Assembly: GCA_964645605.1 (NCBI GenBank)
Contig: CAZYCE010000002.1
Coordinates: forward strand, 67,256-131,255
Origin: an uncultured Gammaproteobacteria bacterium
Lineage (GTDB): Bacteria; Patescibacteriota; Microgenomatia; UBA8517
Direction: 5' to 3'
Length of the DNA: 64,000 bases
Within the stretch, counting starts at the first letter, position 1; each line of letters begins with the position of its first letter. Positions 29,905 through 64,000 of this stretch are shown piece after piece. The position numbers and the translations under genes are program-made. Under the pieces are notes generated by a model that was not told the origin of the DNA, did not search any database, and saw only the letters and a program-made list of their open reading frames with translations.

Positions 29905-30582
29905 TCAGACAGCTCCGACACCACTAATCATAGCAAATGGGGTTTTTATGAGAATAGTCAGATCCATCAATAAAGATTTTTTCTGAGCGTAATTTGCATC
30001 CATTTCGATTCTTTTATCAAAATTTATATTGCTTCTGCCGGATACCTGCCAATATCCTGTTATTCCCGGTTTGACGGTCTGTGTTTGAACAACAAACTTT
30101 TCAGTTCCGGGGTATCTTTTCTGCTGCTCCGTAAGTTCGTCTGCATGATAAGGACGGGGTCCCACCATACTCATATCTCCTTTGAGAACATTGAAAAATT
30201 GAGGAGTCTCGTCTATCGAATATTTGCGGATAAATTTGCCGAATTTTGTAACACGCGGGTCTTCGTGAAGTTTAAAACTTGATCTTTTATACTCGTTATA
30301 TAGTTTTTTAAATCTGGGGTCTTTAGTTAAAAGGTAATCTGCATTGACAGGCATTGAGCGGAATTTATAAAGCCTGAAAACTTTGCCCCCTTTTCCAATT
30401 CTTTTCATATGTTTATTGGTTTTTTCCACAAGAACCGGTCCCGGGGATGTAAATTTAATAATGATTGCCGTCAAAAGCATTATTGGAGAAAAAACAATGA
30501 TAAGTATTATTGCTAAAACAATATCGATCACTCTTTTTGTTATTTCGTATAGCATAATTTCAGAGAAGTTCTGATCTTGCAC
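29905..30582 (-). CDS. Initiating polyprenyl-phosphate phosphoglycosyl transferase (small monotopic PGT, WbaP/PglC-like)
   Basis: 225 aa. KRVIDIVLAIILIIVFSPIMLLTAIIIK (re-entrant helix), SMVGPRP and GITGYWQV are bacterial sugar transferase family motifs. Confidence 0.8.
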   Translation of the reverse strand: MQDQNFSEIMLYEITKRVIDIVLAIILIIVFSPIMLLTAIIIKFTSPGPVLVEKTNKHMKRIGKGGKVFRLYKFRSMPVNADYLLTKDPRFKKLYNEYKRSSFKLHEDPRVTKFGKFIRKYSIDETPQFFNVLKGDMSMVGPRPYHADELTEQQKRYPGTEKFVVQTQTVKPGITGYWQVSGRSNINFDKRIEMDANYAQKKSLLMDLTILIKTPFAMISGVGAV

Positions 30583-31714
30583 CTTCCTTCAGCTTCTCTA
30601 CTACCTTCTTTACGGCCTGTGCGTGGCTTTTGGAACAAACCAAAAGCGCGTCTTTCGTATCGACAATTACAACATTATCAAGCCCGACAACAGCAATCAT
30701 TCTTCCATCGGAATGAACCAAAGTGTCTGTCGTATCAAAGGTCATAACCTCTCCACCCGGTTCATCCCCCGATATAACAACATTGCTTTTATTGTCTTTT
30801 TTAGAATTCGCCCAAACCTCCCGCCAATCACCAATATCCGTCCAGAAAAAGTCCCCCGCAACCACCGCAAAGTTTTTCTCCTTTTCACTTATGGCATAAT
30901 CAACCGAAATCGACGGCATTTTTTGATACTCGGATACTAAAAATTCGGCTTCATCGGATTTACCGATATGTGGTTTTATTTCTTGAAGATTTTTATAAAT
31001 CTCGGGTTGGTGTTTTTTATAAGCATTCAAAAGATCATCTACCCTCCAGACGTATTGCCCTGCATTCCAAAGATATTTTCCCGAAGCTGTATACTTTTTG
31101 GCAAGTTCGATAGGTGGCTTTTCCTCAAACTTTTCAAGTTTATAAAAATCCACATTCCCGGCAACTTTTAACTTATCTCCTTTTTTGATATGTCCCAAAC
31201 CCGTGTGGGGATAGCGGGGTTCAACCCCCATTGCCACGAGTACGTGGTTTTCATAAGCCCACTTTGCAGCTGCCATTATAGTTTCCAAATATCTGGGAAT
31301 CGGCTTAACCAGTCTGTCTGCCGCTTCGGTCATAATAACGGCATCCGGATCTTTTGATTCAATAAAAAGCGCCCCGACTGCGTGGGCCGGGCCCGTCTCA
31401 CGCCTGGCCGGTTCCACAATAATATTTTCTTTGGGAAGAGCCGGAACCTCTCTGACTATCTCACGCTTATAATCTTCCGAGACGGTAATAATAAATATTT
31501 TCTCCATCGGAAGGACCTCAGCAAAGCGCTTAACAGCCACCTGGGTTAAAGTATCGTGATCAAAAAGTTTTAAAAATTGTTTCGGAGTTTTTTGTCTGGA
31601 TCTGGGCCAAAGTCTGGTTCCTCCCCCCCCTGCCAAAATTAATGCATAGAGATGATCTTTGTAATTGCCATTTTCCATTTTTTGCATTTTAGACAAAAAA
31701 TTAAAAACTTTCAC
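30560..31714 (-). CDS. manC: Mannose-1-phosphate guanylyltransferase
   Basis: 384 aa. LILAGGGGTRLWPRSRQKTPKQF is the GMP-type nucleotidyltransferase N-terminus. Confidence 0.75.
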   Translation of the reverse strand: MKVFNFLSKMQKMENGNYKDHLYALILAGGGGTRLWPRSRQKTPKQFLKLFDHDTLTQVAVKRFAEVLPMEKIFIITVSEDYKREIVREVPALPKENIIVEPARRETGPAHAVGALFIESKDPDAVIMTEAADRLVKPIPRYLETIMAAAKWAYENHVLVAMGVEPRYPHTGLGHIKKGDKLKVAGNVDFYKLEKFEEKPPIELAKKYTASGKYLWNAGQYVWRVDDLLNAYKKHQPEIYKNLQEIKPHIGKSDEAEFLVSEYQKMPSISVDYAISEKEKNFAVVAGDFFWTDIGDWREVWANSKKDNKSNVVISGDEPGGEVMTFDTTDTLVHSDGRMIAVVGLDNVVIVDTKDALLVCSKSHAQAVKKVVEKLKEGARSELL

Positions 31715-31724
31715 TGGTTAATAA

Positions 31725-32810
31725 TTAGTGTATCACCTTTTTGGTTAAGTCAAGAAACTCTTTTTTAAACCGGGACTTCGAAAATCTGCGTGCATTATGA
31801 ACAATTACTTCTTTACGGAATTTCATTTTATTGAATTTCAATATGGCGGAACATAAACTTTTAACGTTTTGTCTATCAAAAAATATTCCGGTTTTTCCAT
31901 CTACCACAGTATCTTCCGCTCCACCTTTTCGGTAAGCAATTACGGGAACTCCGTAGCTTTGTGCCTCTACCGCAACGATACCGAAATCTTCCTCTTGGGG
32001 CATTATTAAAGCCTTAGCGCCTGAATAATAAGTCTTCAATTTTTCTTCACTGACTTTTCCCGCAAATTCGATATTTATGCCTGCAATCCTTTTTAATTTT
32101 TCTTCCTCCCTCCCTGTTCCAACAATAATTAACGGAAAACCAAGCTTATTAAAAGCCTTGATGGCCAGATCAACTTTTTTATAACCATAATCCAATCTTG
32201 AAACCAGAAGGAAATACTTCCCTTTTATAGGTTTGGGATTTGTAATTTGGAATTTTTCCATATTTACCGGCGGAAAAATTATTTCCGAATTGCGTTTGTA
32301 ATATTTTTTGATTCGTTTTTGAACCGCTTTCGAAATTGCAATCATTCTGTCCGGATTTTGGGCAGCTTTCCTATCCCAGATTCTCAACAGTTTAACCGCA
32401 GGCCAGCCGGTAATCTTCAGAGGTAGCCATTTAAAATATTCCTTATATCCGCTCCAAAGATAACGAGTTGGGGTAAGACAATAACAAACATGCTTTGTTT
32501 TTCCGAAGGTTTTAATTCCCTTGGCAGATTCGGAAGTAACGGAAATAACCAGATCGTACTTTGAAAAATCGAAACTTCTAAAAACGAACGGCATAAAAAT
32601 CGGTAAAAATTCGTGGTTGGATTTTGTAAAAGGCAACTTTTGCAAAAATGATGTAACAACTGCCGGAAATACTTTTGCCCAAGGGGCACCTTTCGGATCA
32701 TAAACCGATGTGTAAAGCGGGGCTTTAGGAAAAATTTCGTGAAGGGCAAGAAGAACACGTTCAGCTCCTCCCCATTTATTAACTCTGTCGTAGACTATTG
32801 CAACTTGCAT
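31725..32810 (-). CDS. Glycosyltransferase family 4 (GT-B)
   Basis: 361 aa. The C-terminal EEDFGIVAVEAQSYGVPVIA has the E-x7-E motif. Confidence 0.75.
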   Translation of the reverse strand: MQVAIVYDRVNKWGGAERVLLALHEIFPKAPLYTSVYDPKGAPWAKVFPAVVTSFLQKLPFTKSNHEFLPIFMPFVFRSFDFSKYDLVISVTSESAKGIKTFGKTKHVCYCLTPTRYLWSGYKEYFKWLPLKITGWPAVKLLRIWDRKAAQNPDRMIAISKAVQKRIKKYYKRNSEIIFPPVNMEKFQITNPKPIKGKYFLLVSRLDYGYKKVDLAIKAFNKLGFPLIIVGTGREEEKLKRIAGINIEFAGKVSEEKLKTYYSGAKALIMPQEEDFGIVAVEAQSYGVPVIAYRKGGAEDTVVDGKTGIFFDRQNVKSLCSAILKFNKMKFRKEVIVHNARRFSKSRFKKEFLDLTKKVIH

Positions 32811-33900
32811 AAATTTTTAAAGTTTCTTCCGCCATTTTAGCCCAAGAATATTTATTTACAAACTTGGCGGAATTTTGAATTCTTATTTGGCGTTCGGACT
32901 TGTCCAGACTGAGCGCCGTCTCCATCGCTTTTTCTATAGAAAGAGGGTCTATCGGGTCAAAATATAGAGCGTTGTCTTCATATATTTCCTTAAAAACAGG
33001 AATATTTGATGCTAAAAGAAGCGTTCCCGAAGCCATTGCCTCAATCCCGGGAAGCCCGAAGCCCTCCGATAAGGAAGGAAATATAAATCCGACGGAATTT
33101 CTAAAAAGTGTCCCCAATTTGTTGTCGGGTACAAAACCAAGCATTCTGACAAAATTTTCGACCCCAGCCTCCGAAATTAATTTTTCAATTCTCTGAGTAA
33201 AAACATTCCTCGATGATGCAATTGCCAAAAAAACCTTCTGTTCACTTTTTGTGTTCAGTAATTTAATCGCTTTAATTAAATTACTTAGGTTTTTGTGAGG
33301 ATAGGCATTTCCTGTATAAACAAAATAAGGTTTAAGCATTTCAATTGAGGACTCGCTTGTCACTTTTCTATCAAAACCTTCATATGTTACCTTGATTTTA
33401 TCCGGATTAATCTTATATTTTCCCAGTATTTCTTGTCTGACAGTCATTGTGGGTACAATAACGGCAATTGATTTTCTTACGGCATTATCAAAGACCACTC
33501 TATATCCCAATCTTTTAATAAAATATAGAGGTGCCGGAAGAGTCGTTGCGGCAAGCCCCACGCTCTTGTGCATTAACATATCGTGTATCGTTACAACAAA
33601 TTTTCCACGGAAAAAATACGGTACATTGAAGTGGGGAAAATGGGTCAGATCCGGTTTCTCTTTATTAATTATTCTCGGAATTTTTAATTGCTCGGCAAAG
33701 CTGTAATGTCGAAAATCTGCCAGTACTTTTTTCCAATTTCCCGGAAGTGCCAACTCCTGAAAGTACCTTTTCCTTAGAAGAATTACATATTCATTTTTTG
33801 AATCGGTTTTCGAAAGTTCTCCGACAAGGTTAATTATGTATCTTCCAATCCCCGCGTTCTCGAGCCCGTAAAGCCGTGCATCTATTAATATTTTCATCAA
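32779..33900 (-). CDS. Glycosyltransferase family 4 (GT-B)
   Basis: 373 aa. SEGFGLPGIEAMASGTLLL. Confidence 0.75.
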   Translation of the reverse strand: MMKILIDARLYGLENAGIGRYIINLVGELSKTDSKNEYVILLRKRYFQELALPGNWKKVLADFRHYSFAEQLKIPRIINKEKPDLTHFPHFNVPYFFRGKFVVTIHDMLMHKSVGLAATTLPAPLYFIKRLGYRVVFDNAVRKSIAVIVPTMTVRQEILGKYKINPDKIKVTYEGFDRKVTSESSIEMLKPYFVYTGNAYPHKNLSNLIKAIKLLNTKSEQKVFLAIASSRNVFTQRIEKLISEAGVENFVRMLGFVPDNKLGTLFRNSVGFIFPSLSEGFGLPGIEAMASGTLLLASNIPVFKEIYEDNALYFDPIDPLSIEKAMETALSLDKSERQIRIQNSAKFVNKYSWAKMAEETLKIYASCNSLRQS

Positions 33901-34832
33901 TATGAAGAAAGTACCGCAACCCTTATATATCGTAAAATAGTGAACATTTTTATTCCGAATATCACAAAATAATCAAAAATCCTCGGATAGTTATTCCAAA
34001 GATTTTTCCTGAAAAATCTTTCCATTGAGGCAACTCCCGCCAGACGTAGTTTCTTCCTTTGTTGAGGAGAGACTTTATATTTCCATTTTTCAACCTTGCC
34101 CTTGGTGACTCCTTTAAGATGGGTCACCGTAACCTCCGGATAATAAATAATCTTATATCCTGCTTTATGAATTTGGTAACAAAGATCTATATCTTCTCCG
34201 TCAAAAAAATATTTTTCATCAAACCAGCCAACTTTATCCAATATCTTCTTCCATGTTAAAAAGAATGCGCCCTGAATTACTTCTACCTCGTGAGTTTCCC
34301 GTTCGGGTACATCTTCGTACCAATAATTCTTATTGATCCCAAGTGCCAAGTGTTCAAATGCAATTTTGGGTGTGGGAAAACGCCGTCTGACATCTTTATC
34401 CATCTGTCCATTCGGTAAAACCAGCTTACAGGTTAGTGCCCCCACATCGGGATGCTCTTTTAAATATTGCACTGTTTTTGCAAAAACATCTTTATGAACT
34501 ACCGTATCGGGGTTTAAGAAAAGCACCATTTTACCTTCAACCAAACCTTTTGCCCTATTATTTCCCTTAGAAAAACCCTCGTTAGGCCCTTCCGTATATT
34601 TTACCCATGGAAACTTTTTTTTGACCATTTCAGGGCTCCCGTCGGTTGAGGAATTATCTGAAACAATCACCTCAAGGGGTACCTCGTCCATATATTTCTT
34701 AACCGAGTTAAGACAATCTTCCAAAAGTTCTTTTGTGTTGTAGTTAAGAATTATTACCGATAGTTCTGGTTTTTTCATAAAGACCCTCCAGATATTCTCC
34801 CATTTTATACCAGCTAAACTTTTCCTCAACAA
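33897..34832 (-). CDS. Glycosyltransferase family 2 (GT-A)
   Basis: 311 aa. LSVIILNYNTKELL and DNSSTDGS are present, with a DxD-type core. Confidence 0.75.
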   Translation of the reverse strand: MLRKSLAGIKWENIWRVFMKKPELSVIILNYNTKELLEDCLNSVKKYMDEVPLEVIVSDNSSTDGSPEMVKKKFPWVKYTEGPNEGFSKGNNRAKGLVEGKMVLFLNPDTVVHKDVFAKTVQYLKEHPDVGALTCKLVLPNGQMDKDVRRRFPTPKIAFEHLALGINKNYWYEDVPERETHEVEVIQGAFFLTWKKILDKVGWFDEKYFFDGEDIDLCYQIHKAGYKIIYYPEVTVTHLKGVTKGKVEKWKYKVSPQQRKKLRLAGVASMERFFRKNLWNNYPRIFDYFVIFGIKMFTILRYIRVAVLSSY

Positions 34833-35955
34833 GTTTTCTTGCGTTTACGGCAATGTTTTCGGCCAACTTATCGTCACTTAGCACTTTTAGGGTCGCTTCA
34901 GCGATTTCCTCGGGAGTGTTTTTAACAATAATATCTTTGCCGTCGGTTGCCGCAAGTCCTTCGGCTCCAACCGAAGTGGTCACAAGCGGAAGCCCCGCCG
35001 CCATTGCAGCTAAATGCTTCAACCGTGTTCCTCCCGGCCCTCTAAGAGGAGACACAAATACCGATGAGTTGTAATAAGCATTTCTTATACCTTCCTGATC
35101 GTCCTCCTTCAAATCGTCTATTATTATGTCGCCGGATCTGAAAGCCAATATTTCTTCAGGGATATGCTGTCCAACGACCCACATTTTGGCTTTTGGGTTT
35201 TTGGCATGGACTTTCGGAAAAACTTCCCTCAAAAGAAGTTCCGCTGCCTCAACATTTTGAAGCCATTTAAAATTGGCAATAAAGAGAATTCTGGGTGAAT
35301 CGGTTCCCCAGGAAGTTTTCTGCTTGAAAAATGAAAGGTTTACCCCGTTAGGGACAAGGTCTACTTTCAGATCATTCACGAGTTTATGCATTTCCTTTTT
35401 ATCAGATTCCGAAACGGCTACCACCCTGTCGGCCTTTTTCCAAAAGTTTGTTTCCCAGAACTTCAGTTTGGCAACATCAATTGCCAAAAGGGCGCGAAGC
35501 ATGGGATTTTTAGTCCCTTCCATATAATGTTTATAAACCAGATATTCGATGGTTTGCTCAACGAGGAGAATGGGAATTTTTGTCTCGGGAATATGAGGCA
35601 TTACATAAAACGTTTCTGCGTGTATTAGGTCATAATGCTCGCTTGCTACCTCTTCCTGTATGGCTTTTTTCTCTTGTGGGGAAAGGTTTCGTATGACCAA
35701 AAACGGGTACGGTCCAAATCCCGTCAGAAGTATGTTTCTCAAAGTCCATGGGGATTTAGATCTTTTGAACACTTTTACCTTATAACAATACTTTTGCAGC
35801 TCAGGAATGAACTTTCTTTCGGAATCGTCTTTGATAAGAGAGAAAAGAGTTATTTTATGCTTTTTGCTTAAGCCTTTTATCAAATTATAGGAACGAATCT
35901 GTCCTCCGGAAGAATCCGGAAAAGGCAGATAGGGAGTTAGCATCAATATCTTCAT
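34744..35955 (-). CDS. Glycosyltransferase family 4 (GT-B)
   Basis: 403 aa. KILMLTPYLPFPDSSGGQIR and a C-terminal GT-B domain. Confidence 0.75.
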   Translation of the reverse strand: MKILMLTPYLPFPDSSGGQIRSYNLIKGLSKKHKITLFSLIKDDSERKFIPELQKYCYKVKVFKRSKSPWTLRNILLTGFGPYPFLVIRNLSPQEKKAIQEEVASEHYDLIHAETFYVMPHIPETKIPILLVEQTIEYLVYKHYMEGTKNPMLRALLAIDVAKLKFWETNFWKKADRVVAVSESDKKEMHKLVNDLKVDLVPNGVNLSFFKQKTSWGTDSPRILFIANFKWLQNVEAAELLLREVFPKVHAKNPKAKMWVVGQHIPEEILAFRSGDIIIDDLKEDDQEGIRNAYYNSSVFVSPLRGPGGTRLKHLAAMAAGLPLVTTSVGAEGLAATDGKDIIVKNTPEEIAEATLKVLSDDKLAENIAVNARKLVEEKFSWYKMGEYLEGLYEKTRTIGNNS

Positions 35956-36041: not shown

Positions 36042-37514
36042 TTAATGTACGATAGATTCCTTTAGGTCAATAATTATAAATTTATCTGTTTTTTCTATTG
36101 TTTTAAATCTTGACTCCACCATTTTTGTGTCGGCGCTTCCAAGGTCAACAGAAACATAATATGAGGCGCCTCGAGCAATTATGTTGTCTATTGAATCTTC
36201 CACCGCCGGCCAGCCCCATCTTTTTGTTTGATAAAGAAATGCCGTGTCGCCGTTATAGGGAGCCACAATTAATGCATCTTTTGGTGCAATTTTGTCTATT
36301 TCGGTACCGGCCTGAATGATTTCCGGGTGATTTACATTGTAATTTCCCACTATTTGATTCCAACCGGTGAAGAGCATAACTCCAATACTAATTGCAAGAA
36401 TTGTTCTGGACAAAATTTTATTAAAAATTTTGTTTTCCCATAGGTAGATGCTTCCGGAGGCAAGGGCCAGGGCTAATGCCGGAATAACCAAAATCTGGTA
36501 ATAATCATGCATTACATTGGCATCGGCAACCAGAACCACATAAAAAAGCGCACCTGCCAGAAATGCCTGAATAAACAAATTTTTAGACTTGGTATTTAAA
36601 ACCCCAAAAATAAACGGAATAAGCCCAAGTGAACCCAAAATAAGGTGTCCAAGTCTCTCCCCAAAAATCCAATACCACCATGACGGTTTGAACCTTATAT
36701 GGTTTCCATTAAACGCCCATTTATAAAAGGGGATTCCTTCAGGAAATTGTCCCTCCCACACGCGCCAAAGAAGAAATGGAATAAAAGAAATTGCCAGAAA
36801 AACCAAACTCCAAATTATGACTTTTTTGTTCTTATAAAAACTTTTGATTCCATACTTTTTGATAGCCAAATAGGCTATGGGAAACAAATAAAATCCCATA
36901 TAGGGTTTAATCAAAAGCGCCAAGGCCATAAAGGCGGCCGATATAAAGAAGTGAAGTTTCTTCGCGGATCCATAAAACTCCAAAAAGGCCCAGATTGAAA
37001 TTACGCCAAACATAGCCCCCATTGGGTCAGGCAAAATCGTGCGGGTAAAATAAATATTGAAAGGAATAAAAAGGTAAAAGAAGGCACTCAAAAGACCACC
37101 CCATTTATTCATGAGCTTCTTGCCTATTAGATAAATAAAGAATGCTGAAATTACTGCACAAGATATCGTAATAAGCCTGGCCCATACCTCAAGAGAGAAA
37201 TTGGTAAAAGTCTTGGCCAATATTGCATTGAGGGCATTGTAAAAAGGAAATTCGACCATTCTATAACCCTGTGGATTGGGGATTCCCGTCTGAATGCTTG
37301 AGACGTCATGATATCTGGGCAAAAGAAGGTTAATGCCCTGCTCCAGATACACCCTGCTAACGGAGGCTGTGTCTGCCTGACGCCAGGAATGCCAATCGGC
37401 TATCGGATTATTTATCTTATACAACCGGACCGTAAAGCCTAAAATAAGTATGACTGATAACAAAATATACTCAAAATGTTTACTCTTTATAAAACGTATA
37501 AGTTTAAGTTTCAT
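36042..37514 (-). CDS. GT-C fold polytopic glycosyltransferase (ArnT/PMT_2, GT39/83-like)
   Basis: 490 aa. The N-terminus VRLYKINNPIADWHSWRQADTASVSR is followed by about 11 TM helices. Confidence 0.6.
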   Translation of the reverse strand: MKLKLIRFIKSKHFEYILLSVILILGFTVRLYKINNPIADWHSWRQADTASVSRVYLEQGINLLLPRYHDVSSIQTGIPNPQGYRMVEFPFYNALNAILAKTFTNFSLEVWARLITISCAVISAFFIYLIGKKLMNKWGGLLSAFFYLFIPFNIYFTRTILPDPMGAMFGVISIWAFLEFYGSAKKLHFFISAAFMALALLIKPYMGFYLFPIAYLAIKKYGIKSFYKNKKVIIWSLVFLAISFIPFLLWRVWEGQFPEGIPFYKWAFNGNHIRFKPSWWYWIFGERLGHLILGSLGLIPFIFGVLNTKSKNLFIQAFLAGALFYVVLVADANVMHDYYQILVIPALALALASGSIYLWENKIFNKILSRTILAISIGVMLFTGWNQIVGNYNVNHPEIIQAGTEIDKIAPKDALIVAPYNGDTAFLYQTKRWGWPAVEDSIDNIIARGASYYVSVDLGSADTKMVESRFKTIEKTDKFIIIDLKESIVH

Positions 37515-56118: not shown

Positions 56119-57498
56119 TCACTTTTTGATTTTCTGTATTAAAAACAAAAATTTTCCCCTTTTAGAAAGAGGGATACTTCTAACATATTTAAACTTGACT
56201 TTTGTATCGGCTAATTTAAGAAACTTCTCATTAATTTCAAGTTTATCTTTTAGACCAAATAGCCTATCTGGAATTATTTTTATAATCACGATGCCTTTTT
56301 CTGACTGAATTATTTGCCATTTTTTGATGTTTCTAAAAGCTTTATAATGTTGACCAAAAACTAAGGCGGTTAAGGGTGTCTTGTCGCCACTTGAACCATA
56401 TATGTAATCTTGTGTTCTCCCTTGCAGTTCCCTCAGACAAACAACTCCGTTCTTTAGTCCTCCGTAAACTGCAATGTCACCGGTTCTATATCTAATAAAT
56501 GGCATAGCATAATTATAAAAGCCTGTTACCACAATCTCTCCTGCTGAACCCTTTTTAACATGCTTGCCCTTCTCATCCAGAATTTCAGTGAAACCATAAA
56601 ATGGTGAGCATAGATATTTGGTAGAATTTTTTAGGGTATAAGCAAAAACACAAGCTTCAGTATGGCCATATTGAAAAAATATATTTGTATCTAAAACTCT
56701 TGCTATTTTCTTAATTTGCCAATCAAAAGCCTGCTCAGATGTTAAAATTACACCTTTAATTTTGAATGAGATTTTGGCCTTCATAGAGTCGACATATCGT
56801 ACAAAATCGTAAATGGTTGATGGATACCCACGTATTAAACTTGGACATACTTTCAAAAAATCGGCTAAATACTGTGACTTGTTTTTATTTTTAAAATATA
56901 GAGATGAATATGTTTTTTTACCGAATGGTAAGTTGTGTTTATTACTTATCCAAAAAATATTTCTATTTCGCAGTTTAGAAGGAACAGAGCTACCGCTAAA
57001 AGAAATAAAAGAATCTCCTTTTCTATAACCAATATATTTGGCATAATATTCCTGATGAATATCATCTATTATCCCCACTTTGGGAGATAAAAAAAGTCGC
57101 AGTGGTTCGCCTGTGCTCCCACCTGTATATCCCTCATAGTATTCCCACGGCCTCAGACTTTTGGTTATTAATTCATCTTCATGTTTTCTAATTATTGTTT
57201 TATCAAGTATGGGAATACTATCAAAATTACTTAAATTATTTAAGTCAAGATTCACTTTTTGGAAAATTCTTTTATAGTATTCGTTATTTTTATACGCAAA
57301 ACGACAAAGATTAATTAATTTCTTTTTTTGAAAAGATTCAATACGCACTCTGATATCCTTGCCATTCTCAATGTCCTTAAGCCCCCTTTTAATTTTTAAT
57401 ATCTCTCTTTTGTAAAAAAATCTTAATCCTAACTTTGTAAAACATATCACATCTAACAGAGAATTTTGTTTCAAAAAATCTATAAATCTTCTATTCAT
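56119..57498 (-). CDS. PaaK/CapK-like adenylate-forming enzyme (phenylacetate-CoA ligase family, COG1541-like)
   Basis: 459 aa. YTGGSTGEPLR (AMP-binding motif I), YGHTEA and YRTGD (motif II-like). Confidence 0.65.
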   Translation of the reverse strand: MNRRFIDFLKQNSLLDVICFTKLGLRFFYKREILKIKRGLKDIENGKDIRVRIESFQKKKLINLCRFAYKNNEYYKRIFQKVNLDLNNLSNFDSIPILDKTIIRKHEDELITKSLRPWEYYEGYTGGSTGEPLRLFLSPKVGIIDDIHQEYYAKYIGYRKGDSFISFSGSSVPSKLRNRNIFWISNKHNLPFGKKTYSSLYFKNKNKSQYLADFLKVCPSLIRGYPSTIYDFVRYVDSMKAKISFKIKGVILTSEQAFDWQIKKIARVLDTNIFFQYGHTEACVFAYTLKNSTKYLCSPFYGFTEILDEKGKHVKKGSAGEIVVTGFYNYAMPFIRYRTGDIAVYGGLKNGVVCLRELQGRTQDYIYGSSGDKTPLTALVFGQHYKAFRNIKKWQIIQSEKGIVIIKIIPDRLFGLKDKLEINEKFLKLADTKVKFKYVRSIPLSKRGKFLFLIQKIKK

Positions 57499-57541
57499 TC
57501 CTTACAAAAAATATCCCTTACTGATATTGGCATATAAATAC

Positions 57542-58768
57542 TTATTGCTCTAATTCCATATTAAAATATTTAAGATATATCTTAACAGTATTATCTATTT
57601 TATATTTGAAATTGTGTTTAGATGCTTTTTCATTAAGCAAGTTGCAAATACAATTAATACATTTTTGATTAGAAGAACCCTCCTCTAATAGATGGTTTCT
57701 ATTAATTTCCGCAGAACCCGTATTGTTGAATGCTAAAACAGTCAAGCCACACGCCAGTGCCTCCAGATTTGCCATGCTTGCATTTTCCATAGCAGAAGTC
57801 ATAAAAAACAAATTGGAAGCACTATAATATTTAGCTAAATTCTCAGGATTTTTTTGATAAGGACGATAAAGAATATTTTTATCTTGTATCTCTTTGTTTG
57901 TTCTACCCAAACAAACAAATAATAAATCCTTGTTATTGCGCAATGAATTGGACACTCTCTTAAATATTTCGAATCTTTTTTTTCTGTCATGTTTATTACC
58001 GCTATAGATACCCAAAATTATTTTTTTGTCTAACGGCAAATTTAGACTTTTTCTTGCAAGTTTTTTGTCTGTCGGGTGAAATATTTTCGTGTCAACACCA
58101 TTTTGAATAACACCCATTTTCTTGTCACCAAAGATATTAGTACTTTCCGCAACACCTTTGAGCCATTTGGAAGGTGAAATAATTCTAAAATTGCTTTCTT
58201 TATAAATATCATGTTTACGTGTCCATAAATATTTCGAGTTATTCCAAAGCATTGGTTGATAGTGATAAATTCCCGAAGTAAAGTGCTTACCATGATTAAA
58301 GTGCTTACATTCAAAACAAAAGCCACAATGAGATGTCATTGACCACATGTCGTGTAGGGTCCAAACAACCGGCTTCCGCTTTGTTACTTCAATTAGCGTA
58401 GATAGTTTAAAATAATGACCATGCAAATTGTGGATGTGAACAATATCCGCCCCCTTAAACCACGGATGATTAATAATTTCGTGTGAGGCTCCAAAATCAA
58501 TATCATTTGAAAAAATAAAAGCTCTCAAGTGCCTGAGGTAGCGCAGAACATTATTCCCGAAAATATTTCGGATGAATTCTGAAAATATGCTTGCTGAGAT
58601 TACATCGACATCCGACGATTTTGTATATTTATAACCAACCAGATATCTAACCTGGTTCCCTTCTTTTCTAATTTTATTTCCCAATTGCCAAGCTAAATTT
58701 GCTGCCCCACCTATTGCGTCAGTTGTATTTATAATTAATATTTTCATAATATTATTTTTTTGCAACAA
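57542..58768 (-). CDS. Glycosyltransferase family 4-like (GT-B)
   Basis: 408 aa. MENASMANLEALACGLTVLAF (E-x7-E). Confidence 0.6.
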   Translation of the reverse strand: MLQKNNIMKILIINTTDAIGGAANLAWQLGNKIRKEGNQVRYLVGYKYTKSSDVDVISASIFSEFIRNIFGNNVLRYLRHLRAFIFSNDIDFGASHEIINHPWFKGADIVHIHNLHGHYFKLSTLIEVTKRKPVVWTLHDMWSMTSHCGFCFECKHFNHGKHFTSGIYHYQPMLWNNSKYLWTRKHDIYKESNFRIISPSKWLKGVAESTNIFGDKKMGVIQNGVDTKIFHPTDKKLARKSLNLPLDKKIILGIYSGNKHDRKKRFEIFKRVSNSLRNNKDLLFVCLGRTNKEIQDKNILYRPYQKNPENLAKYYSASNLFFMTSAMENASMANLEALACGLTVLAFNNTGSAEINRNHLLEEGSSNQKCINCICNLLNEKASKHNFKYKIDNTVKIYLKYFNMELEQ

Positions 58769-59492
58769 TGAAGATATGCGTTGAGATCAACCTATTACGA
58801 ATACCAATTTTGGCTAGTAGTAGACCTACAAAATTTAACCCATATGTAAGAATTCTCAAAAATGGAGACCTTTCAGAAATAGATTCTAGCCAAACCAGTT
58901 TGCCACTTACATAAAATACTTTATACGATTCGGGTTTTAACGACCCCACAATTTTTTTCAAACTTTGGATGTTCATAGAATTTAGATTATGAGTCTTAAT
59001 ATTATCTGGATCAAACAAAATTTGGTATGCTCCATTTAAACCCAAAAAATTTGGCAATCCGATTATCATGCTTCCACCCTGAGAAACCAGTTGCCAATGT
59101 TTATTGATTACATCATTTGTATCGTTAAAATGCTCAATAAAACCCAGAGAAAAAACAAGATCGTATTTTTTAGATGTTTTATATTTAAAAAAGTCAGTTT
59201 CGGAAATATCTATATTGCCACAAGGCAAACCATTTACTTCAACATTTTTACCAATAATCCCCCGATCTACCACAAAATCAAGAATTGTCGATTTGTAACC
59301 AAAATATTTACTAAAATAGATGGCATAGTTCCCAGGAAAACCTCCAATTTCAATCATGTTTTTGTAATTTTTATTTTTTAGATACTTTTCAAAAATATTG
59401 TTAAAGCTAAAAATTCTTGAAATTTTTTGTACATGCGGCTTGCTACTCCAATATTTTTTCCAAAAAGCGATGTCTGTAAGTTCTTTGTTCAT
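58752..59492 (-). CDS. Class I SAM-dependent methyltransferase
   Basis: 246 aa. MIEIGGFPGNY (motif I) and DLVFSLGFIEHF (motif II/III). Confidence 0.65.
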   Translation of the reverse strand: MNKELTDIAFWKKYWSSKPHVQKISRIFSFNNIFEKYLKNKNYKNMIEIGGFPGNYAIYFSKYFGYKSTILDFVVDRGIIGKNVEVNGLPCGNIDISETDFFKYKTSKKYDLVFSLGFIEHFNDTNDVINKHWQLVSQGGSMIIGLPNFLGLNGAYQILFDPDNIKTHNLNSMNIQSLKKIVGSLKPESYKVFYVSGKLVWLESISERSPFLRILTYGLNFVGLLLAKIGIRNRLISTHIFIVAKK

Positions 59493-60388
59493 TATAAATT
59501 TCCAAACATGGATTTCGCTAACAAGGATAATACTACAAACGGATTCATGTATACATTTCTCTCCGTAACCAAATCAGCCTTTTTATTTTCAACTATGTTG
59601 TTCGGATGTTTCAATGGAAAATTTATTTTTTCAGTTTTCATCCCCATTGTTCTTATCTTAAAAAAAGTATGAGTCGCCTGTTTCCCGTACCCGGTATTTG
59701 AAACAAGATTTACTTTCGGAATGATGGTCAATTTTTGATTTTTAAACGCAGTATATGACCAAATGTATGCCCAGGAATTAATTTCACCTTGATAAACCAA
59801 TTTAAATATTTGTTTCCAATACATTACTGAAAATATATTTTGAAAATAATTTTGGAAACTCTTATCTTTACTAATAACGAGCCAGTCTTTCATTGAGTCG
59901 TCATATAACTTCCAACCTCTCCTCCATGTTGCCCATCCCCAAGAATGTACATATTTTGAAAAATAGTAACTTTCTTTAATTTTTGTCTTTCCAAATTGAA
60001 AATTATTTCCGGAAATAGATATTATTTCATCACTATCTTTATACTTTTCAAGAAGTTCGTCGCAAAACTTGAAAAAAGATTCATCGATTGTCAAATCATC
60101 CTCCAGAATGATGGCTCTATCAACACTCTTAAACACCCAATCGAGCCCATTTACCATATTTCTTCTTAAACCATTATTTATTTTAGAATACCTTTTATGT
60201 ATCGTACAATTCCAGTCTATTTTTTCAACTTCGTTCCTGGCCTGTCTACATTTGCCGAAATCCGTATCATCTTTTGGTCCATCAGCAATAACATAAATAG
60301 TTTTAGGTTTAATATTCCGTAGAACATCAATAATTTTTTTCGTCAGGTATGACCTATTATAAATAATTAAAACAATTGGGGCTTTCAT
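59492..60388 (-). CDS. Putative GT-A fold glycosyltransferase (DxD-like ILEDDL)
   Basis: 298 aa. IVLIIYNRSYL, ILEDDL and HSWGWATWRRGW. Confidence 0.45.
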   Translation of the reverse strand: MKAPIVLIIYNRSYLTKKIIDVLRNIKPKTIYVIADGPKDDTDFGKCRQARNEVEKIDWNCTIHKRYSKINNGLRRNMVNGLDWVFKSVDRAIILEDDLTIDESFFKFCDELLEKYKDSDEIISISGNNFQFGKTKIKESYYFSKYVHSWGWATWRRGWKLYDDSMKDWLVISKDKSFQNYFQNIFSVMYWKQIFKLVYQGEINSWAYIWSYTAFKNQKLTIIPKVNLVSNTGYGKQATHTFFKIRTMGMKTEKINFPLKHPNNIVENKKADLVTERNVYMNPFVVLSLLAKSMFGNL

Positions 60389-60417
60389 TTGGTTATTACG
60401 CTATCCAAAATTATCTT

Positions 60418-61806
60418 TTAATATTTTATTCCACCTGATAACTTTCTATAAAAATTAAAAATTACCAAAAAGGTCGATATCAGAACCAATACTTTCCAGA
60501 ATATACTAAACTTATCCAGAGATCCACCTAGGGCTGAAAAATCTGTATAGGATGATATTAATCTGTAAAATATTGTTCCACCAAAAAATATTAATAAATA
60601 AAACAAACAAAACAATAACAACAAAGACACTTCCTTTCCCATTTTTAATTTTGTTAAATATAGAAAAACACATATAAAAAGAATTGGTATCAGCATATCT
60701 AATATCACAGAGTTAAAAACCATTACAAAGGAGTCTGATATTGTTTTTAGACTAAAATTATATAAATAGGCAGACAGTTTGGTCACAAAACTAAACTGAG
60801 ATATGCGCAACTTATCAAATTCAAAACTATAATAGGATAAATATTTTCCGGATGCATATCCCACAAAATAGTTAGAGGTTAAAAATATAAGAAGACCAAC
60901 CAAATAACGTTTTTTAAATAACAATCTCTTAACCAGCAGATAAATTATTAAGAACACAAGTGCAGCCATCCATATGGGTTCATTTCGGGTAAATCTGCTA
61001 AAGACGAAAAACAAGCTACCCAAAACCAGGTAATTTATTTTTTCCCTAGATAACCATTTAACTAAATAAAGAGTGCCTAAAACCAAAAAGGTTGACTGAA
61101 TTAAATTTGATGATACACGTACTGACCAATCGTAAAATAACGGATAAAAAGAAATCAGAAATGCTAAAGCTAAGCCAACTTTTTTATTCGTTAAATTTTT
61201 AGCAAATGCGTAAACCCCAAAAATCAGAGATAAAAATATCAAAGTATAAATGAATTTGGGGTTGGTACTTCCAGCAACATATAAAATTGAATGCATGAGA
61301 GAAGTCAAAAGAGGATAAGAAATGTCATAAAAGGACCGGGCGGAAAAAAATATACTTTGGGCGGTAACAATTAATTTTGCTCTATAGTCATACATCTGGA
61401 CAGCGTCCCACATCCAGATGGGCCAATATAAATTTCTAATAATAGAGGTCAGCAAGAAAAATCCTATGCCACCAACAGAAACCTTCTCAAATAAGTCTAA
61501 ATTTTTAAAAAATTTGATGGGGAAAAAATCATGTAATGAATATTTGTTCTTTAATATAATTTTATTGACCAGAATCAAAATTAAATTCCCCGTTACCAAG
61601 AAAATAAAAACGTTTTGAAAATTAAATTTATAACCGATAAAGCCAAGAAGAAAAAGCCCAAAAGTTGTGAGTCCAATTCCCAACATAAAACCTGAGGATA
61701 ATTCTTCCGCTAATCCAGACTTAATTCTAAACAATTTAAAAAAATTAATTCCCGAAAACAGAATCATTAAAAGAAACAATGTTTGTTTTAAAATATTTAA
61801 TATCAT
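60418..61806 (-). CDS. Polytopic membrane protein (GT-C or O-antigen-polymerase-like, tentative)
   Basis: 462 aa, about 12 TM helices. Very AT-rich. Confidence 0.45.
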   Translation of the reverse strand: MILNILKQTLFLLMILFSGINFFKLFRIKSGLAEELSSGFMLGIGLTTFGLFLLGFIGYKFNFQNVFIFLVTGNLILILVNKIILKNKYSLHDFFPIKFFKNLDLFEKVSVGGIGFFLLTSIIRNLYWPIWMWDAVQMYDYRAKLIVTAQSIFFSARSFYDISYPLLTSLMHSILYVAGSTNPKFIYTLIFLSLIFGVYAFAKNLTNKKVGLALAFLISFYPLFYDWSVRVSSNLIQSTFLVLGTLYLVKWLSREKINYLVLGSLFFVFSRFTRNEPIWMAALVFLIIYLLVKRLLFKKRYLVGLLIFLTSNYFVGYASGKYLSYYSFEFDKLRISQFSFVTKLSAYLYNFSLKTISDSFVMVFNSVILDMLIPILFICVFLYLTKLKMGKEVSLLLLFCLFYLLIFFGGTIFYRLISSYTDFSALGGSLDKFSIFWKVLVLISTFLVIFNFYRKLSGGIKY

Positions 61807-62816
61807 TTTTTTATTTCAATAATTCCCCACACATTTTTCCCTCTAAAATCATCGGGGTTGTAATTGCCATAGAAAACATTTTGCACATAAGTTCCATTGT
61901 CTTGTTGAATGAGATAGACAATCTTATCTGATTTTACGGGAAAATCCGGCCAAATGTAATTTACTTGAGAAGGGCCATCATATATCGGGTGCAAATATCC
62001 TTTGGCAAGAACTATGTATTCATAGTTGTCGTTGTCCATTTCGGAACCGTAATTTATAAGTGTTCTGTCAGTCAAGAAATACCTGAAATATTCAATTCTG
62101 CCGTCAACACTATGCGGTGCAATATCTACAGGAAGTAAAATTGAGTTCCCGGAATTGGTATTATCCCCAATCAGTGAAATGTATCTATATAGAAGTCCCC
62201 ACTTAATCGTCATCTTTTCCTGATATGAATAATTAAGATGGGTAAAAATAAATATCATATCTGACGCTGCATCACTGAATGTTATATAAAATTTGCTACC
62301 TACGAAAACCAATATTAGAACTGCGGCTACACTTACAGGAAGTATATTTTTCTTATTTTTAATTCCATATATGTCTTTTGCGGTTTTAATTATAGTTTCT
62401 GGCCTAACCATCTGTATCAAAAGAAGAAAAAAACTTAAGAGAACTAAATTAAAAAAAATCCTGGGCTGAATATGAAAGGTTACAAAGGAATAATTGGAGT
62501 ATTTTGCCGAATTTAAAAAAAACATAACAAAATAGAAAGCAGTAATTGGAATAAAAAATACAGTGTTGAGTCTCAAAAGCAACTTTTCTAAAACGGTGGG
62601 TTTGTAATTTTTATTTTCTATCCTAAGGAAAAGGATTAAAAATGCCGAAAAGATAGAAACAGCTAGGAAAAAACCGGTTGGCAGGAAAATATGCTTACTC
62701 AAAAATCCGGAATATTTATATGACTCTATCAAAAGGAAAAATCCAGAAACACTAATCAGATACGGAAAGATAGTCTTATTTAAGGTTAGTATTTTTCTAA
62801 AAAATTTATTTTTCAC
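61803..62816 (-). CDS. Membrane protein with C-terminal extracytoplasmic domain (hypothetical)
   Basis: 337 aa. About 6 TM helices followed by a soluble domain. Overlaps its neighbours by 4 nt at each end. Confidence 0.4.
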   Translation of the reverse strand: MKNKFFRKILTLNKTIFPYLISVSGFFLLIESYKYSGFLSKHIFLPTGFFLAVSIFSAFLILFLRIENKNYKPTVLEKLLLRLNTVFFIPITAFYFVMFFLNSAKYSNYSFVTFHIQPRIFFNLVLLSFFLLLIQMVRPETIIKTAKDIYGIKNKKNILPVSVAAVLILVFVGSKFYITFSDAASDMIFIFTHLNYSYQEKMTIKWGLLYRYISLIGDNTNSGNSILLPVDIAPHSVDGRIEYFRYFLTDRTLINYGSEMDNDNYEYIVLAKGYLHPIYDGPSQVNYIWPDFPVKSDKIVYLIQQDNGTYVQNVFYGNYNPDDFRGKNVWGIIEIKK

Positions 62817-64000
62817 TTAGTAATTTCATTAGTTGGATAGAAACCAGCTTTGATGTTCCCATATTGAATCATTTTAAATCCTGATAGATATGGTGTACAA
62901 GGTAATTGTGAGTTTCCACAACGATCACCATTTACTGGAGTCCAAACATAAAAGGACTGATCCGGATAATTAATGATAAACGGCTTTACTAAAGTACTTT
63001 CTTCTTTTTGAACAGTAAACAACTCCGGTTCTTTCTTCAAATCCACGGCATTTAGAAGGTAGCCGGATATTGTAAATATAAATAATAAAACAATTAGATT
63101 TTTGAAATGAGCATATTTAAGGAAATCAGTTAAGAATGGTGGCAAAATTAATGAAATAACAACATAAATATATATACCCATAAACCTAAAATCCGGAGCC
63201 GTTATAAATGTGTATAAAAGGGATGCCAAATTCATAAATATTAAAAAGTCGATCTTTTTAATATTATTTATTACATTTTGATTCTCTTTAAATTTATACC
63301 TAGAAAAAAAATAGGCAAACGTCAGTGGGATTACGCTAAATAAATAATATAAATTAGGCTTATTATTATTGAACCAATTTATAAACCAACCCCAAAAACC
63401 AACATTTAAAGAACTTAGATATTTTGGACCCGGTAATCTTGCCCAAGCCTTAACAACATCATTAAAATTTCTGGCGATTTCTATCGGCACTTGCCACTGA
63501 AAATGAACACCAAGAATTGGCAATGGAAAAAAGGGCCAGCCAGATAAAATTAGGTTACGGAGTATGAAACCAAGAAAGAACGCCAAGGTAAATAGTAAAA
63601 ATATTATATTTTTCTTTGATGATAAAAGTATACTTTTTAACTCAATTATAACAAACAAAAAAAATAAAATTAAACCTACAAAATAAGAATATTTCGTTGT
63701 AGCAGCCATGGCAAATAATGGAACCGCCAATATTAAATTTTCCTTATCTAAAAGTAGAGTATAGAAAGCAGATACCAAGACAAAGATCGTCAATCCAAAA
63801 TCGGTTGAAAGAGAATTAATCTGACCAACAAACATAGACATAACTAAAAGAGAAAAAAGTCCAAATATACGAATTAGGTTATTTTTATTTTTACTAAACA
63901 AGAATGTAATTATCTGAAAAGCAAAAACTACAAATAAAAGAGAATTCACTACATGAGTGGAAGCATTTGTAAAAACACCATGACCCATAATCGCCGCCAA
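62813..64000 (-). CDS. Membrane protein with C-terminal extracytoplasmic domain (hypothetical). The 5' end is truncated by the window edge
   Basis: More than 395 aa. Multiple TM helices then a soluble C-terminal domain. Its architecture resembles the downstream paralog at 61803-62816. Confidence 0.4.
   Translation of the reverse strand: MAAIMGHGVFTNASTHVVNSLLFVVFAFQIITFLFSKNKNNLIRIFGLFSLLVMSMFVGQINSLSTDFGLTIFVLVSAFYTLLLDKENLILAVPLFAMAATTKYSYFVGLILFFLFVIIELKSILLSSKKNIIFLLFTLAFFLGFILRNLILSGWPFFPLPILGVHFQWQVPIEIARNFNDVVKAWARLPGPKYLSSLNVGFWGWFINWFNNNKPNLYYLFSVIPLTFAYFFSRYKFKENQNVINNIKKIDFLIFMNLASLLYTFITAPDFRFMGIYIYVVISLILPPFLTDFLKYAHFKNLIVLLFIFTISGYLLNAVDLKKEPELFTVQKEESTLVKPFIINYPDQSFYVWTPVNGDRCGNSQLPCTPYLSGFKMIQYGNIKAGFYPTNEITK

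Follow-up and report, generated by a model that had tools for sequence, protein, structure and literature searches.

The wall polysaccharides of lactococci and streptococci are specified by rhamnose-rich cell wall polysaccharide (Rha-CWPS) loci, in which a conserved backbone part is joined to a variable side-chain region and which encode membrane glycosyltransferases of the GT-C fold together with a Wzx-type flippase (PMC9574508). In these systems WpsG is the Wzx-type flippase, and the GT-C enzymes WpsI and WpsJ polymerise and transfer lipid-linked glycans, respectively (PMC9574508, PMC10821137, PMC9746298, PMC8035078). A gene for a DUF4012 protein lies between the priming glycosyltransferase gene and wzz in the exopolysaccharide (EPS) locus of Bifidobacterium longum 105-A (PMC5412050), and DUF4012 is enriched in the Candidate Phyla Radiation (CPR) and in Gram-positive bacteria (PMC6744442). 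Here we analysed a 64,000-nucleotide stretch of CPR DNA (the window), of which 29905-64000 carries a cluster of 31 genes (g1-g31) that starts directly beside a DUF4012 gene. It is close to certain that this region encodes glycan biosynthesis. The locus consists of a ~26-kb core that is kept across the lineage (g1-g20 and g24), a variable slot between the Wzx gene (g20) and g24, and a low-GC tail; that the core glycan is a glycopolymer anchored to peptidoglycan is our preferred reading, a proposition we hold to be evenly balanced.

The 31 open reading frames (ORFs) of the cluster are 181-525 amino acids long, the last (g31) being clipped by the window edge, and neighbours are between -104 and +95 nt apart, too close for a gene to have been overlooked. 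The minus strand carries 29 of them and the plus strand the pair 51277-51987 and 51980-53188, in agreement with the contiguous, almost wholly co-directional arrangement described in an earlier note on this DNA. Families were assigned mainly with Pfam and supplemented by NCBIfam, PDB searches, BLASTP, hhalign and Foldseek (Table 1). The surface-glycan gene content that the earlier note had claimed was borne out by Pfam with small corrections of number: the cluster encodes an initiating phosphoglycosyltransferase (PGT), a Wzx flippase, a Wzy_C protein, many GT4 and GT2 enzymes and at least eight GT-C-like proteins. The small PGT, the ManC enzyme, the left-handed beta-helix (LbH) acetyltransferase, Wzx and the Wzy- or ligase-like protein were recognised through Bac_transf, the ManC beta-helix, Hexapep, Polysacc_synt and Wzy_C, and IDETPQ...MSMVGPRP can be read in the sequence of the PGT. 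The GT4 family calls stand, but the number of these enzymes is seven (g3, g4, g6, g12, g13, g17 and g26) rather than six; the predicted four or five GT2/GT-A enzymes correspond to four GT2 proteins (g5, g9, g15 and g19) and one weak GT25-like GT-A protein (g28), whose match is below the cut-off. For the PaaK/CapK-like enzyme g25, which also stays below the Pfam cut-off, support comes from NCBIfam, the PaaK structure in the PDB and CapK_C, whereas the methyltransferase assignment of g27 has the sub-cut-off Methyltransf_23 match only. Relaxing Pfam to E <= 10 brought nothing new for g10, g21, g22, g30 and g31, g10 having no match at all, and in the NCBIfam naming of the glycosyltransferases and GT-Cs no cut-off was passed save that of the LIC_10190 family by g31.

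The conservation of the locus was examined in two sets of relatives. A DUF4012 search gave 77 loci from species-representative genomes, of which the 54 with at least 9 kb of flank were counted; a Wzx profile gave 80 metagenome loci, with counts made over 29 loci on the PGT side and 36 on the distal side, and the neighbourhoods of three Wzx relatives were inspected as well. Nearly all of the informatively named genomes among the 77 DUF4012 loci belong to Candidatus Woesebacteria, Microgenomates or Patescibacteria, with the best match 75-76% identical; the host is thus a member of Candidatus Woesebacteria (Microgenomates, CPR), which bears out the CPR-like host suspected earlier. The order LbH-g10-GT2-Wzy_C-GT-C-GT4-GT2-GT4-GT4-ManC-like-PGT-DUF4012-RecO, followed at some distance by an aminoacyl-tRNA synthetase gene, the gene at 19440 and MraZ-MraW-FtsL-FtsI, is nearly constant in the 77 loci, and the same core order is found in Blackburnbacteria (L062, L078) and Shapirobacteria (L073) at 35-50% protein identity. 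Genes g1-g7 occur in 49-53 of the 54 genomes with their order kept, and g8 in 47. The DUF4012 gene directly abuts the PGT gene, a pairing seen in 52/54 genomes; RecO lies directly past DUF4012 in 53/53, and mraZ or mraW is within 10 kb in 40/53.

The same constancy extends to the other half of the core. From Wzx towards the PGT the genes keep the order g19-g18-g17-(g16)-g15-g14-g13-g12-g11, g17 being the most and g16 the least constant of those counted in the metagenome loci (Table 1), and the exceptions are a methyltransferase in place of g18 (L081) and an inserted asparagine synthase (L082). More than 100 relatives of Wzx itself are 67-91% identical to it, and the best 120 of its 508 homologues (E <= 1e-10) are 67-100% identical. 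A variable O-antigen or capsule locus would not usually show such conservation of Wzx. As a separate observation, the ManC-like position (30560-31714; L003-L079) is held by two deeply divergent classes across Microgenomates, the protein being at least 45% identical to that of the window in 35 loci and 27-42% identical in 30 loci, nearly all full-length. Judged from these sequences, the activated sugar may differ between lineages though the transferases are conserved.

Distal to Wzx, by contrast with the core, g24 alone is conserved, with a median identity of 51%. Among the 36 relatives g23 was found in eight, g26 in one and g25 and g27 in none, whereas g28-g31 are represented by cassette-like genes only, at 25-50% identity; homologues of g28 occur in 9/36 at 31-50% identity and follow g30- and g29-like genes in L081 and L084. 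Gene content here varies between relatives with Wzx proteins 69-89% identical, and the replacements are always glycan-related (among them other PMT_2 and GtrC-like proteins, GT2, GT4, methyltransferases, an epimerase and an Acyl_transf_3 protein). The GC content is 0.41 upstream of the cluster, 0.40 in the core, 0.37 in g21-g24 and 0.31 in g25-g31 (0.29-0.32 for single genes, 0.31 for g25), with third-codon-position GC of 0.25-0.31 in the last group. The drop is abrupt and falls at 56.1 kb, exactly at the start of g25; the low-GC block (56119-64000) measures at least 7.9 kb and runs past the window edge. Exact-protein look-ups, g30 among them, that were aimed at the sequence beyond this edge returned no record. 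No tRNA gene was found in the window, nor any meaningful repeats bounding the block, whose composition suggests lateral acquisition or fast turnover. The serotype-like variability expected across relatives is therefore present in the slot between Wzx and g24 and in the low-GC tail, but not in the ~26-kb core, the order of which is conserved. In three relatives (L081 9324-9917, L082 9042-9998 and L083 8124-9176) Fic or NYN genes stand directly beside Wzx, where the conserved part meets the variable one. At this position the window has the inverted g21-g22 cassette instead.

With these features the locus can be set beside the described systems. Like the Rha-CWPS systems (cwps/rgp, the Wps dual-chain and the three- and four-component systems), it has the build of a monoderm wall-polymer locus with conserved and variable parts, a lipid-linked unit with a Wzx-type flippase, GT-Cs that would act outside the membrane, a GT2 gene beside GT-C genes and a gene for a candidate LCP (LytR-CpsA-Psr) ligase outside the cluster. 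Unlike them, it has no rml or rhamnosyltransferase genes, no ABC transporter and no GtrA flippase, it starts with a PglC-type PGT and not with GacI/J-type C55-P-GlcNAc synthesis, it holds far more GT-Cs (five conserved and at least eight in total), and it shows the DUF4012 pairing and the linkage to the dcw (division and cell wall) genes; the likeness observed is one of architecture and not of sequence orthology. With the Wzx/Wzy capsule and O-antigen loci, such as cps of S. pneumoniae with its LCP protein Cps2A and PGT Cps2E, it shares a PGT, glycosyltransferases, Wzx, Wzy_C, an acetyltransferase and a low-GC variable segment. It differs from these in having many GT-Cs and no CpsC/D or Wzz, and in that most of the locus, including Wzx, is conserved superphylum-wide and is not hypervariable. 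Every enzyme class in it is known, glycan loci of large size are common, and with an architecture like that of Gram-positive wall-polysaccharide loci it is not categorically new.

Pfam recognised seven GT-C proteins in the cluster, six by PMT_2 matches past the cut-off (g7, g14, g16, g18, g24 and g29) and g23 by DUF6056, which newer Pfam naming gives as the GtrC-like GT_STM0557_N; with g22, a BLAST paralogue of g29, this makes up the at least eight that had been predicted, and three further membrane proteins (g21, g30 and g31) lie outside the classified GT-Cs. Sequence searches against solved structures with g14 and with profiles of 50 g7 and 43 g8 orthologues gave no match, and fold comparison was therefore used for g7. 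The significant Foldseek matches of its AlphaFold2 model (42 sequences, mean pLDDT 82, pTM 0.85) are GT-C enzymes, with E values between 4e-8 and 6e-7 for AglB, ArnT, STT3 and PglB. The top E value belongs to AglB (3.9e-8), the best mutual TM-scores to ArnT (0.65/0.60, E ~1e-7), and ALG12 reaches TM 0.62/0.63; further matches are DPY19, AftA, AftB, AftD, EmbC/Emb, Pmt4 and PimE.

In the GT-C fold the catalytic acidic residues sit after the first transmembrane (TM) helix. Residues D40, W41, H42, R45, Q46, D48 and T49 of g7 are invariant in 50 orthologues and follow directly after TM1, with D40 and D48 placed in the first outside loop; the check for ArnT-like catalytic Asp/Glu that the earlier note had advised found, for g7, an ArnT-like fold in the model and two invariant aspartates at this place. 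Acidic motifs, identified by eye on hydropathy plots, also follow the first helix in g14 (WLDE), g16 (WSEQ), g18 (YRD) and g23 (WVDD), whereas that of g24 (SDAAKFAD) is at the N-terminus and those of g22 (DWDAITLFDFRA, DWDA..DFRAR) and g29 (WDAVQMYDYRA) come after about four helices. Profile alignment of g24 with g7 by hhalign (Prob 85%, E 6e-6, 312 columns) indicates that g24 is homologous to g7. The fold of g7, the acidic motifs and this homology together speak against these membrane proteins being unrelated transporters. The GT-C paralogues are only 25-31% identical to one another, so that the array is old and recent duplication is ruled out as its origin. The pairs g21/g22 and g30/g29 are one two-gene cassette, a small membrane protein with a GT-C-like protein, present twice in opposite orientation, and the order g30-g29-g28 is repeated in L081 and L084 at 32-39% identity. 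We also considered g31 as a GT-C or a Wzy protein, but its hhalign comparisons with g7 and Wzy were not significant. In six relatives (L097, L105, L112, L117, L124 and L144) a g31-like LIC_10190-family gene lies distal to Wzx and just upstream of an opposing g15-like GT2 gene (31-39% identity), which hints that this family works with a lipid-phosphate sugar synthase; a partner of g31 in the window, if there is one, would be encoded past the edge.

An array of many GT-Cs in a lineage-wide, essential-looking system is likewise found in the mycobacterial and corynebacterial pathways for arabinogalactan and lipomannan/lipoarabinomannan (LM/LAM; AftA-D, EmbA-C, PimE, Mpt and Lcp1), which use polyprenyl-phosphate sugars, the donors proposed here, and AftA, Emb, AftB, AftD and PimE are among the fold matches of g7. 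The best of those matches, however, are ArnT, AglB and STT3 and not Emb/Aft, no genes for decaprenyl-phosphoryl arabinose (DPA) synthesis (UbiA/DprE) or of Ppm1 type were recognised in the locus, and its host is a CPR bacterium of ~1 Mb. Arabinogalactan export uses an ABC-type transporter, whereas this locus has Wzx and Wzy_C; it belongs to neither the Rha-CWPS nor the arabinogalactan/LAM systems. Its logic comes nearest to that of the Rha-CWPS loci, and its number of GT-C paralogues and lineage-wide conservation are more like those of the arabinogalactan/LAM machinery. A more local likeness is with the gtrABC cassettes for O-antigen glucosylation of Salmonella and Shigella phages, since g23 belongs to GT_STM0557_N and small, mobile-looking cassettes of a membrane protein and a GT-C recur in the variable zone, but there is no GtrA (PF04138) and no clear GtrB orthologue, and the locus is chromosomal with no prophage context visible.

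Starting from the observed enzyme families and folds, the conservation pattern and the gene linkage, we infer the substrates, step order, acceptor and anchoring of the pathway as follows. The small PGT would load a sugar-phosphate onto polyprenyl phosphate, and the GT4 and GT2 enzymes would lengthen the glycan in the cytoplasm, with GDP-mannose supplied by the ManC-like enzyme and O-acetylation by the WcaF-like g11. Wzx would then flip the lipid-linked unit over the membrane, the Wzy_C protein g8 would polymerise or transfer it, and the four to five conserved GT-Cs (g7, g14, g18, g24 and sometimes g16) would add sugars on the outer face, using polyprenyl-phosphate sugars as donors; a membrane-anchored GT2, g15 for example, is the probable source of these donors. 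The chain would most likely be attached to peptidoglycan by LCP-type transfer, for which the nearby LCP protein and possibly DUF4012 are candidates. Strain-specific decorations may be supplied by g21-g23 and g25-g31 (GT-C cassettes, GT4, GT-A-like protein, methyltransferase and CapK-like enzyme). The wall context is given by the upstream half of the window, which holds mur, fts and glmSU genes.

A number of observations weigh against a peptidoglycan-anchored polymer made in this way. None of the cluster proteins reached an NCBIfam equivalog cut-off that would assign a sugar specificity, and the PMT_2 enzymes could target proteins instead of a polymer. Wzy_C domains are common to polymerases, WaaL ligases and O-oligosaccharyltransferases, and polymerisation by g8 is for this reason assumed. 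The architecture of g15, a GT2 domain with two C-terminal helices, is like that of GtrB, ArnC and dolichyl-phosphate mannose synthase (DPMS), and its gene adjoins GT-C genes in 27/29 relatives; it is a candidate polyprenyl-phosphate sugar synthase, but in single-sequence and profile searches its matches to DPMS, GtrB and ArnC were not better than those to generic GT2 proteins and covered its first ~105 residues only. The earlier note had spoken of a complete Wzx/Wzy tool kit, which is not strictly so: Pfam found no Wzz or polysaccharide co-polymerase (PCP; CpsC/D) match among the 31 cluster proteins or DUF4012, and no GtrA-type (PF04138) flippase in the window. Speculatively, g10 or the helical hairpins of DUF4012 might substitute for a chain-length regulator. 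The single Wzx could serve in place of GtrA, or, by analogy with Lactococcus lactis, where the flippase CflA is encoded away from its cluster (PMC9574508), a second flippase may be encoded elsewhere.

The placing of the LCP gene is a further point on this side. The cluster had been described as flanked by an LCP and a DUF4012 gene, and the latter does directly adjoin the PGT gene. The LCP gene, however, is on the other strand and is separated from the cluster by 7.3 kb with eight unrelated genes, among them genes for a PD-(D/E)XK nuclease, a cupin, an RNase H-like protein, an ABC-3 transporter pair and RecO, and it lies within 10 kb of DUF4012 in only 23/53 relatives, outside the conserved unit.

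A second possible candidate for attachment is the DUF4012 protein. Four regions can be told apart in its AlphaFold2 model (pLDDT 75, pTM 0.73): a disordered cytoplasmic tail; a single membrane helix continued by long helical hairpins (41-256); an alpha/beta domain at ~260-500; and, at the C-terminus, a beta-sandwich similar to the N-terminal domain of M1 aminopeptidases. Foldseek gave weak LCP-like matches to 3pe5 and 3owq (E 0.02-0.03) and nothing at E <= 1e-3. Pfam finds DUF4012 only, without the LytR_cpsA_psr signature, and hhalign of 63 DUF4012 against 22 LCP orthologues gave Prob 0.16% and E 0.36 over one 24-column stretch, in which DUF4012 DGVIAVDTQLLVNILNVIGAIGVP is aligned with the LCP consensus NYFVSVDFxGFxKxIDxLGGIxV. 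With the sequence profiles negative and the structure signals weak, we do not claim DUF4012 as an LCP homologue, and an LCP-like domain in the model is put forward as a lead. In B. longum 105-A a priming glycosyltransferase gene likewise adjoins DUF4012 at the head of the EPS/capsular polysaccharide (CPS) locus, but there Wzz stands beside DUF4012 and no GT-C array is reported (PMC5412050). It would follow from the boldest interpretation that the core with DUF4012 makes a defining secondary wall polymer of Microgenomates, built largely on the outside by five conserved GT-Cs, like mycobacterial arabinogalactan, and coupled genetically to the division and peptidoglycan genes, with DUF4012 as a hitherto unrecognised and highly divergent LCP-type transferase that attaches it and the tail setting strain-specific surface identity, for example in host attachment or phage recognition of these episymbionts; taken as a whole, we regard this as improbable.

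Other products have to be considered for the same enzymes. We think it unlikely that the locus serves O-glycosylation of proteins (S-layer proteins, pilins or exoproteins), in which g8 would be a PglL/WsaB-type O-oligosaccharyltransferase moving the lipid-linked glycan of g1-g20 en bloc to Ser, Thr or Tyr and the PMT_2 proteins would O-mannosylate secreted proteins from polyprenyl-phosphate mannose. The Wzy_C domain is all that was detected in g8 and would suit such an enzyme, g7 matches PF02366 (PMT) at 28.6 bits against a cut-off of 22.7, although its PMT_2 match is stronger, the homologues of g7 are called GT39 by NCBI, a WLDE motif is present in g14, and the cluster includes a ManC-like enzyme. 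The model of g7 is nevertheless far closer to ArnT and oligosaccharyltransferases (E 1e-7) than to Pmt4 and Pmt1/2 (E 1e-3 to 2e-2), no gene for a target protein was recognised in the part of the conserved unit scanned with Pfam, and the genes that stay closely linked to the unit in relatives are those of peptidoglycan synthesis and division. Moreover, six or more paralogous GT-Cs are more typical of polymer-building systems, as in mycobacterial arabinogalactan and LAM.

A polymer that is not attached to peptidoglycan, either a membrane-anchored lipoglycan resembling LM/LAM or lipoteichoic acid (LTA) or a free capsule or exopolysaccharide, appears quite unlikely. It would agree with the LCP gene being outside the conserved unit and with the matches of the g7 model to PimE, Emb and Aft, multiple GT-Cs being the enzymes that make lipomannan and LAM in Actinobacteria. 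DUF4012 is, besides, part of an EPS/CPS locus in B. longum (PMC5412050). Against it, Pfam recognised no anchor enzyme of PimA/PimB or LtaS/YpfP type in the cluster, initiation through a PGT leads to an intermediate linked by pyrophosphate, the substrate that LCP enzymes usually take (PMC9574508), and the core adjoins the dcw/mur genes.

Functional unity of the 34 kb can also be doubted, in that two or more separate loci might be joined here, with g25-g31 laterally acquired and acting on another acceptor. The abrupt fall in GC at 56.1 kb (0.40 to 0.31), the rarity of g25, g27 (0/36 each) and g26 (1/36) in relatives, the presence of g28-g31 as 25-50% identical cassettes and the Fic and NYN genes at the boundary in relatives are all consistent with this. 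We hold it to be very unlikely, since the genes are co-directional across a 23-nt gap between g25 and g24 with no convincing terminator, and the same position in relatives always has glycan-modifying genes, as in variable side-chain regions (PMC9574508, PMC9746298).

Contigs of the Logan assembly of run SRR13007709 match the window at 17891-39885, 46119-57841 and 58033-61138 with 100% identity and no gaps, a comparison that covers the assembler and not the sample, as these may be the same reads as those of the source genome. One Logan contig of 49,080 bp supplies both 17891-39885 and 46119-57841 and would span ~8762-57841 if colinear throughout. The 191 nt left unbridged (57842-58032) fall within the intact two-domain GT4 ORF g26, and g29, g30 and g31 overlap one another by 4 nt. 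For the last 2.9 kb (61139-64000) no second assembly was found among the Logan contigs. There is no sign of a chimeric join in the region. That the 34 kb are a chimeric concatenation of unrelated contigs, a misassembly raised as a concern earlier, is hardly credible: although the second assembly stops short of 61139-64000 and its break at 57841/58033 is near the GC step, the identity holds across three stretches that include the step at 56.1 kb, the gap is inside an intact ORF, the 4-nt overlaps link g29-g31, and the core gene order is repeated in dozens of further genomes.

A life attached to other cells is assumed for CPR/Patescibacteria, and to our knowledge little is known of their envelope chemistry beyond peptidoglycan, pili and S-layers. 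A keyword literature search, in part with narrow terms, brought up no account of a locus of this kind from CPR. The features that stand out are a core conserved across Microgenomates beside division genes, at least eight GT-Cs in a genome of ~1 Mb and the constant pairing of DUF4012 with the PGT. Complete chromosomes of relatives measure 0.90-1.08 Mb, of which 34 kb is ~3-4%; this share, together with the core order kept in Woesebacteria, Blackburnbacteria and Shapirobacteria, argues for a major and probably indispensable envelope glycan in a group that has hardly any genes to spare. The core genes could be used as markers and are candidates for heterologous reconstitution, the variable tail is a candidate for what sets surface diversity among strains, and DUF4012 is a candidate for a missing component of polysaccharide assembly or attachment.

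Table 1. Genes of the cluster (g1-g31) with the LCP and DUF4012 genes, positions in the window. E values are from Pfam unless another source is named; fractions give the relatives (54 genomes, or 29 or 36 metagenome loci) that have the gene.
Feature	Position	Strand	Evidence and remarks
LCP (LytR-CpsA-Psr)	21570..22619	+	LytR_cpsA_psr 2.7e-34; candidate ligase, loosely linked
DUF4012 membrane-anchored exoprotein	27891..29885	-	PGT partner
g1 small initiating phosphoglycosyltransferase (PglC/WbaP C-terminal type)	29905..30582	-	Bac_transf 7e-61, profile 1-178/179; 52/54
g2 ManC-like sugar-1-phosphate nucleotidyltransferase	30560..31714	-	NTP_transferase 1.2e-31; ManC_GMP_beta-helix 2.5e-17
g3 GT4	31725..32810	-	Glycos_transf_1 2.9e-28; 51/54
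g4 GT4	32779..33900	-	Glycos_transf_1 1e-27; 49/54
g5 GT2, one predicted C-terminal TM helix	33897..34832	-	Glyco_tranf_2_3 6e-21; 50/54
g6 GT4	34744..35955	-	Glyco_trans_1_4 2.5e-20; 53/54
g7 GT-C fold, conserved partner of the Wzy_C gene	36042..37514	-	PMT_2 3.7e-14; 52/54
g8 Wzy_C-domain protein (polymerase or ligase/O-oligosaccharyltransferase)	37504..38928	-	Wzy_C 1e-10, passes cut-off; ~12 TM; 47/54
g9 GT2	38888..39814	-	Glycos_transf_2 7.9e-19
g10 conserved 181-aa protein, two TM helices and outside loop	39807..40352	-	no Pfam match
g11 WcaF-like hexapeptide acetyltransferase	40371..40994	-	Hexapep 1.3e-14; NCBIfam WcaF family 2e-29, below cut-off
g12 GT4	41024..42205	-	Glycos_transf_1 2.4e-37
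g13 GT4	42202..43275	-	Glycos_transf_1 4.5e-23; 23/29
g14 GT-C, WLDE after TM1	43257..44603	-	PMT_2 2.2e-12; 19/29
g15 GT2, two C-terminal TM helices	44610..45449	-	Glycos_transf_2 1.4e-34; 27/29; candidate polyprenyl-phosphate sugar synthase
g16 GT-C, variably present	45446..46780	-	PMT_2 1.1e-6; 14/29
g17 GT4	46677..47615	-	Glycos_transf_1 1.1e-25; 29/29
g18 GT-C	47593..49029	-	PMT_2 2.8e-10; 28/29
g19 GT2	49005..49841	-	Glycos_transf_2 8.8e-14; 26/29
g20 Wzx (MOP) flippase, starts the Wzx-to-PGT block	49937..51223	-	Polysacc_synt 6.7e-24; Polysacc_synt_3 9e-13; ~11 TM
g21 small membrane protein, g30 paralogue	51277..51987	+	BLASTP to g30 5.6e-6; no Pfam match
g22 10-TM GT-C-like, g29 paralogue	51980..53188	+	BLASTP to g29 1.4e-17; no Pfam match
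g23 GtrC-like GT-C (DUF6056 / GT_STM0557_N)	53215..54525	-	PF19528 3.2e-21; 8/36; variable slot
g24 GT-C, core outpost distal to Wzx	54518..56095	-	PMT_2 2.7e-7; 33/36
g25 CapK/PaaK-like adenylate-forming enzyme	56119..57498	-	NCBIfam DVU_1553 family 4e-28 (below cut-off); PDB PaaK 4.9e-10; precomputed CapK_C
g26 GT4 (low-GC block)	57542..58768	-	Glyco_transf_4 1.5e-13; Glycos_transf_1 2.2e-12
g27 probable SAM methyltransferase (low-GC block)	58752..59492	-	Methyltransf_23 3.8e-5, below cut-off
g28 GT-A-like, ILEDDL motif (low-GC block)	59492..60388	-	GT25 0.0034, below cut-off
g29 GT-C (low-GC block)	60418..61806	-	PMT_2 4.8e-8
g30 5-TM membrane protein, g29 partner, g21 paralogue (low-GC block)	61803..62816	-	
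g31 polytopic LIC_10190-family membrane protein	62813..64000	-	NCBIfam NF047510 9.4e-32, 110 bits vs cut-off 100

Among the smaller genes of the cluster, g10 has orthologues that adjoin the LbH gene in relatives. Promoter and terminator scans of the region gave results at chance level. A sigma-70-like site (TTAACC, 17 nt, TATAAT) is found at 51230-51258 on the minus strand, in the 53-nt gap between the divergent genes and just ahead of the start of Wzx; such sites are no commoner here than in shuffled sequence.

In the first 20 kb of the window, genes of peptidoglycan synthesis and of division form one block (murI, a fusion of MurB with a Mur ligase, further Mur ligases, glmU, glmS, murA, ftsI, mraW and mraZ). 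The 773-aa ORF at 3033-5354 on the minus strand, which combines MurB domains (FAD_binding_4 and MurB_C) with those of a full Mur ligase (MurD-like N-terminal part, Mur_ligase_M and the C-terminal domain), appears to be this fusion. Genes for a CofD/YvcK-family protein (13667-14683, minus strand) and a PP2C phosphatase (9575-10684, minus strand) lie among the murA, glmS and Mur ligase genes and may be regulators of wall-precursor supply. Between the aminoacyl-tRNA synthetase gene and mraZ, the ORF at 19440-20120 (minus strand) encodes a protein of 226 aa that has a single TM helix at its N-terminus and faintly matches an Ig-like (Big_1) profile; it is kept at that position in most related loci.

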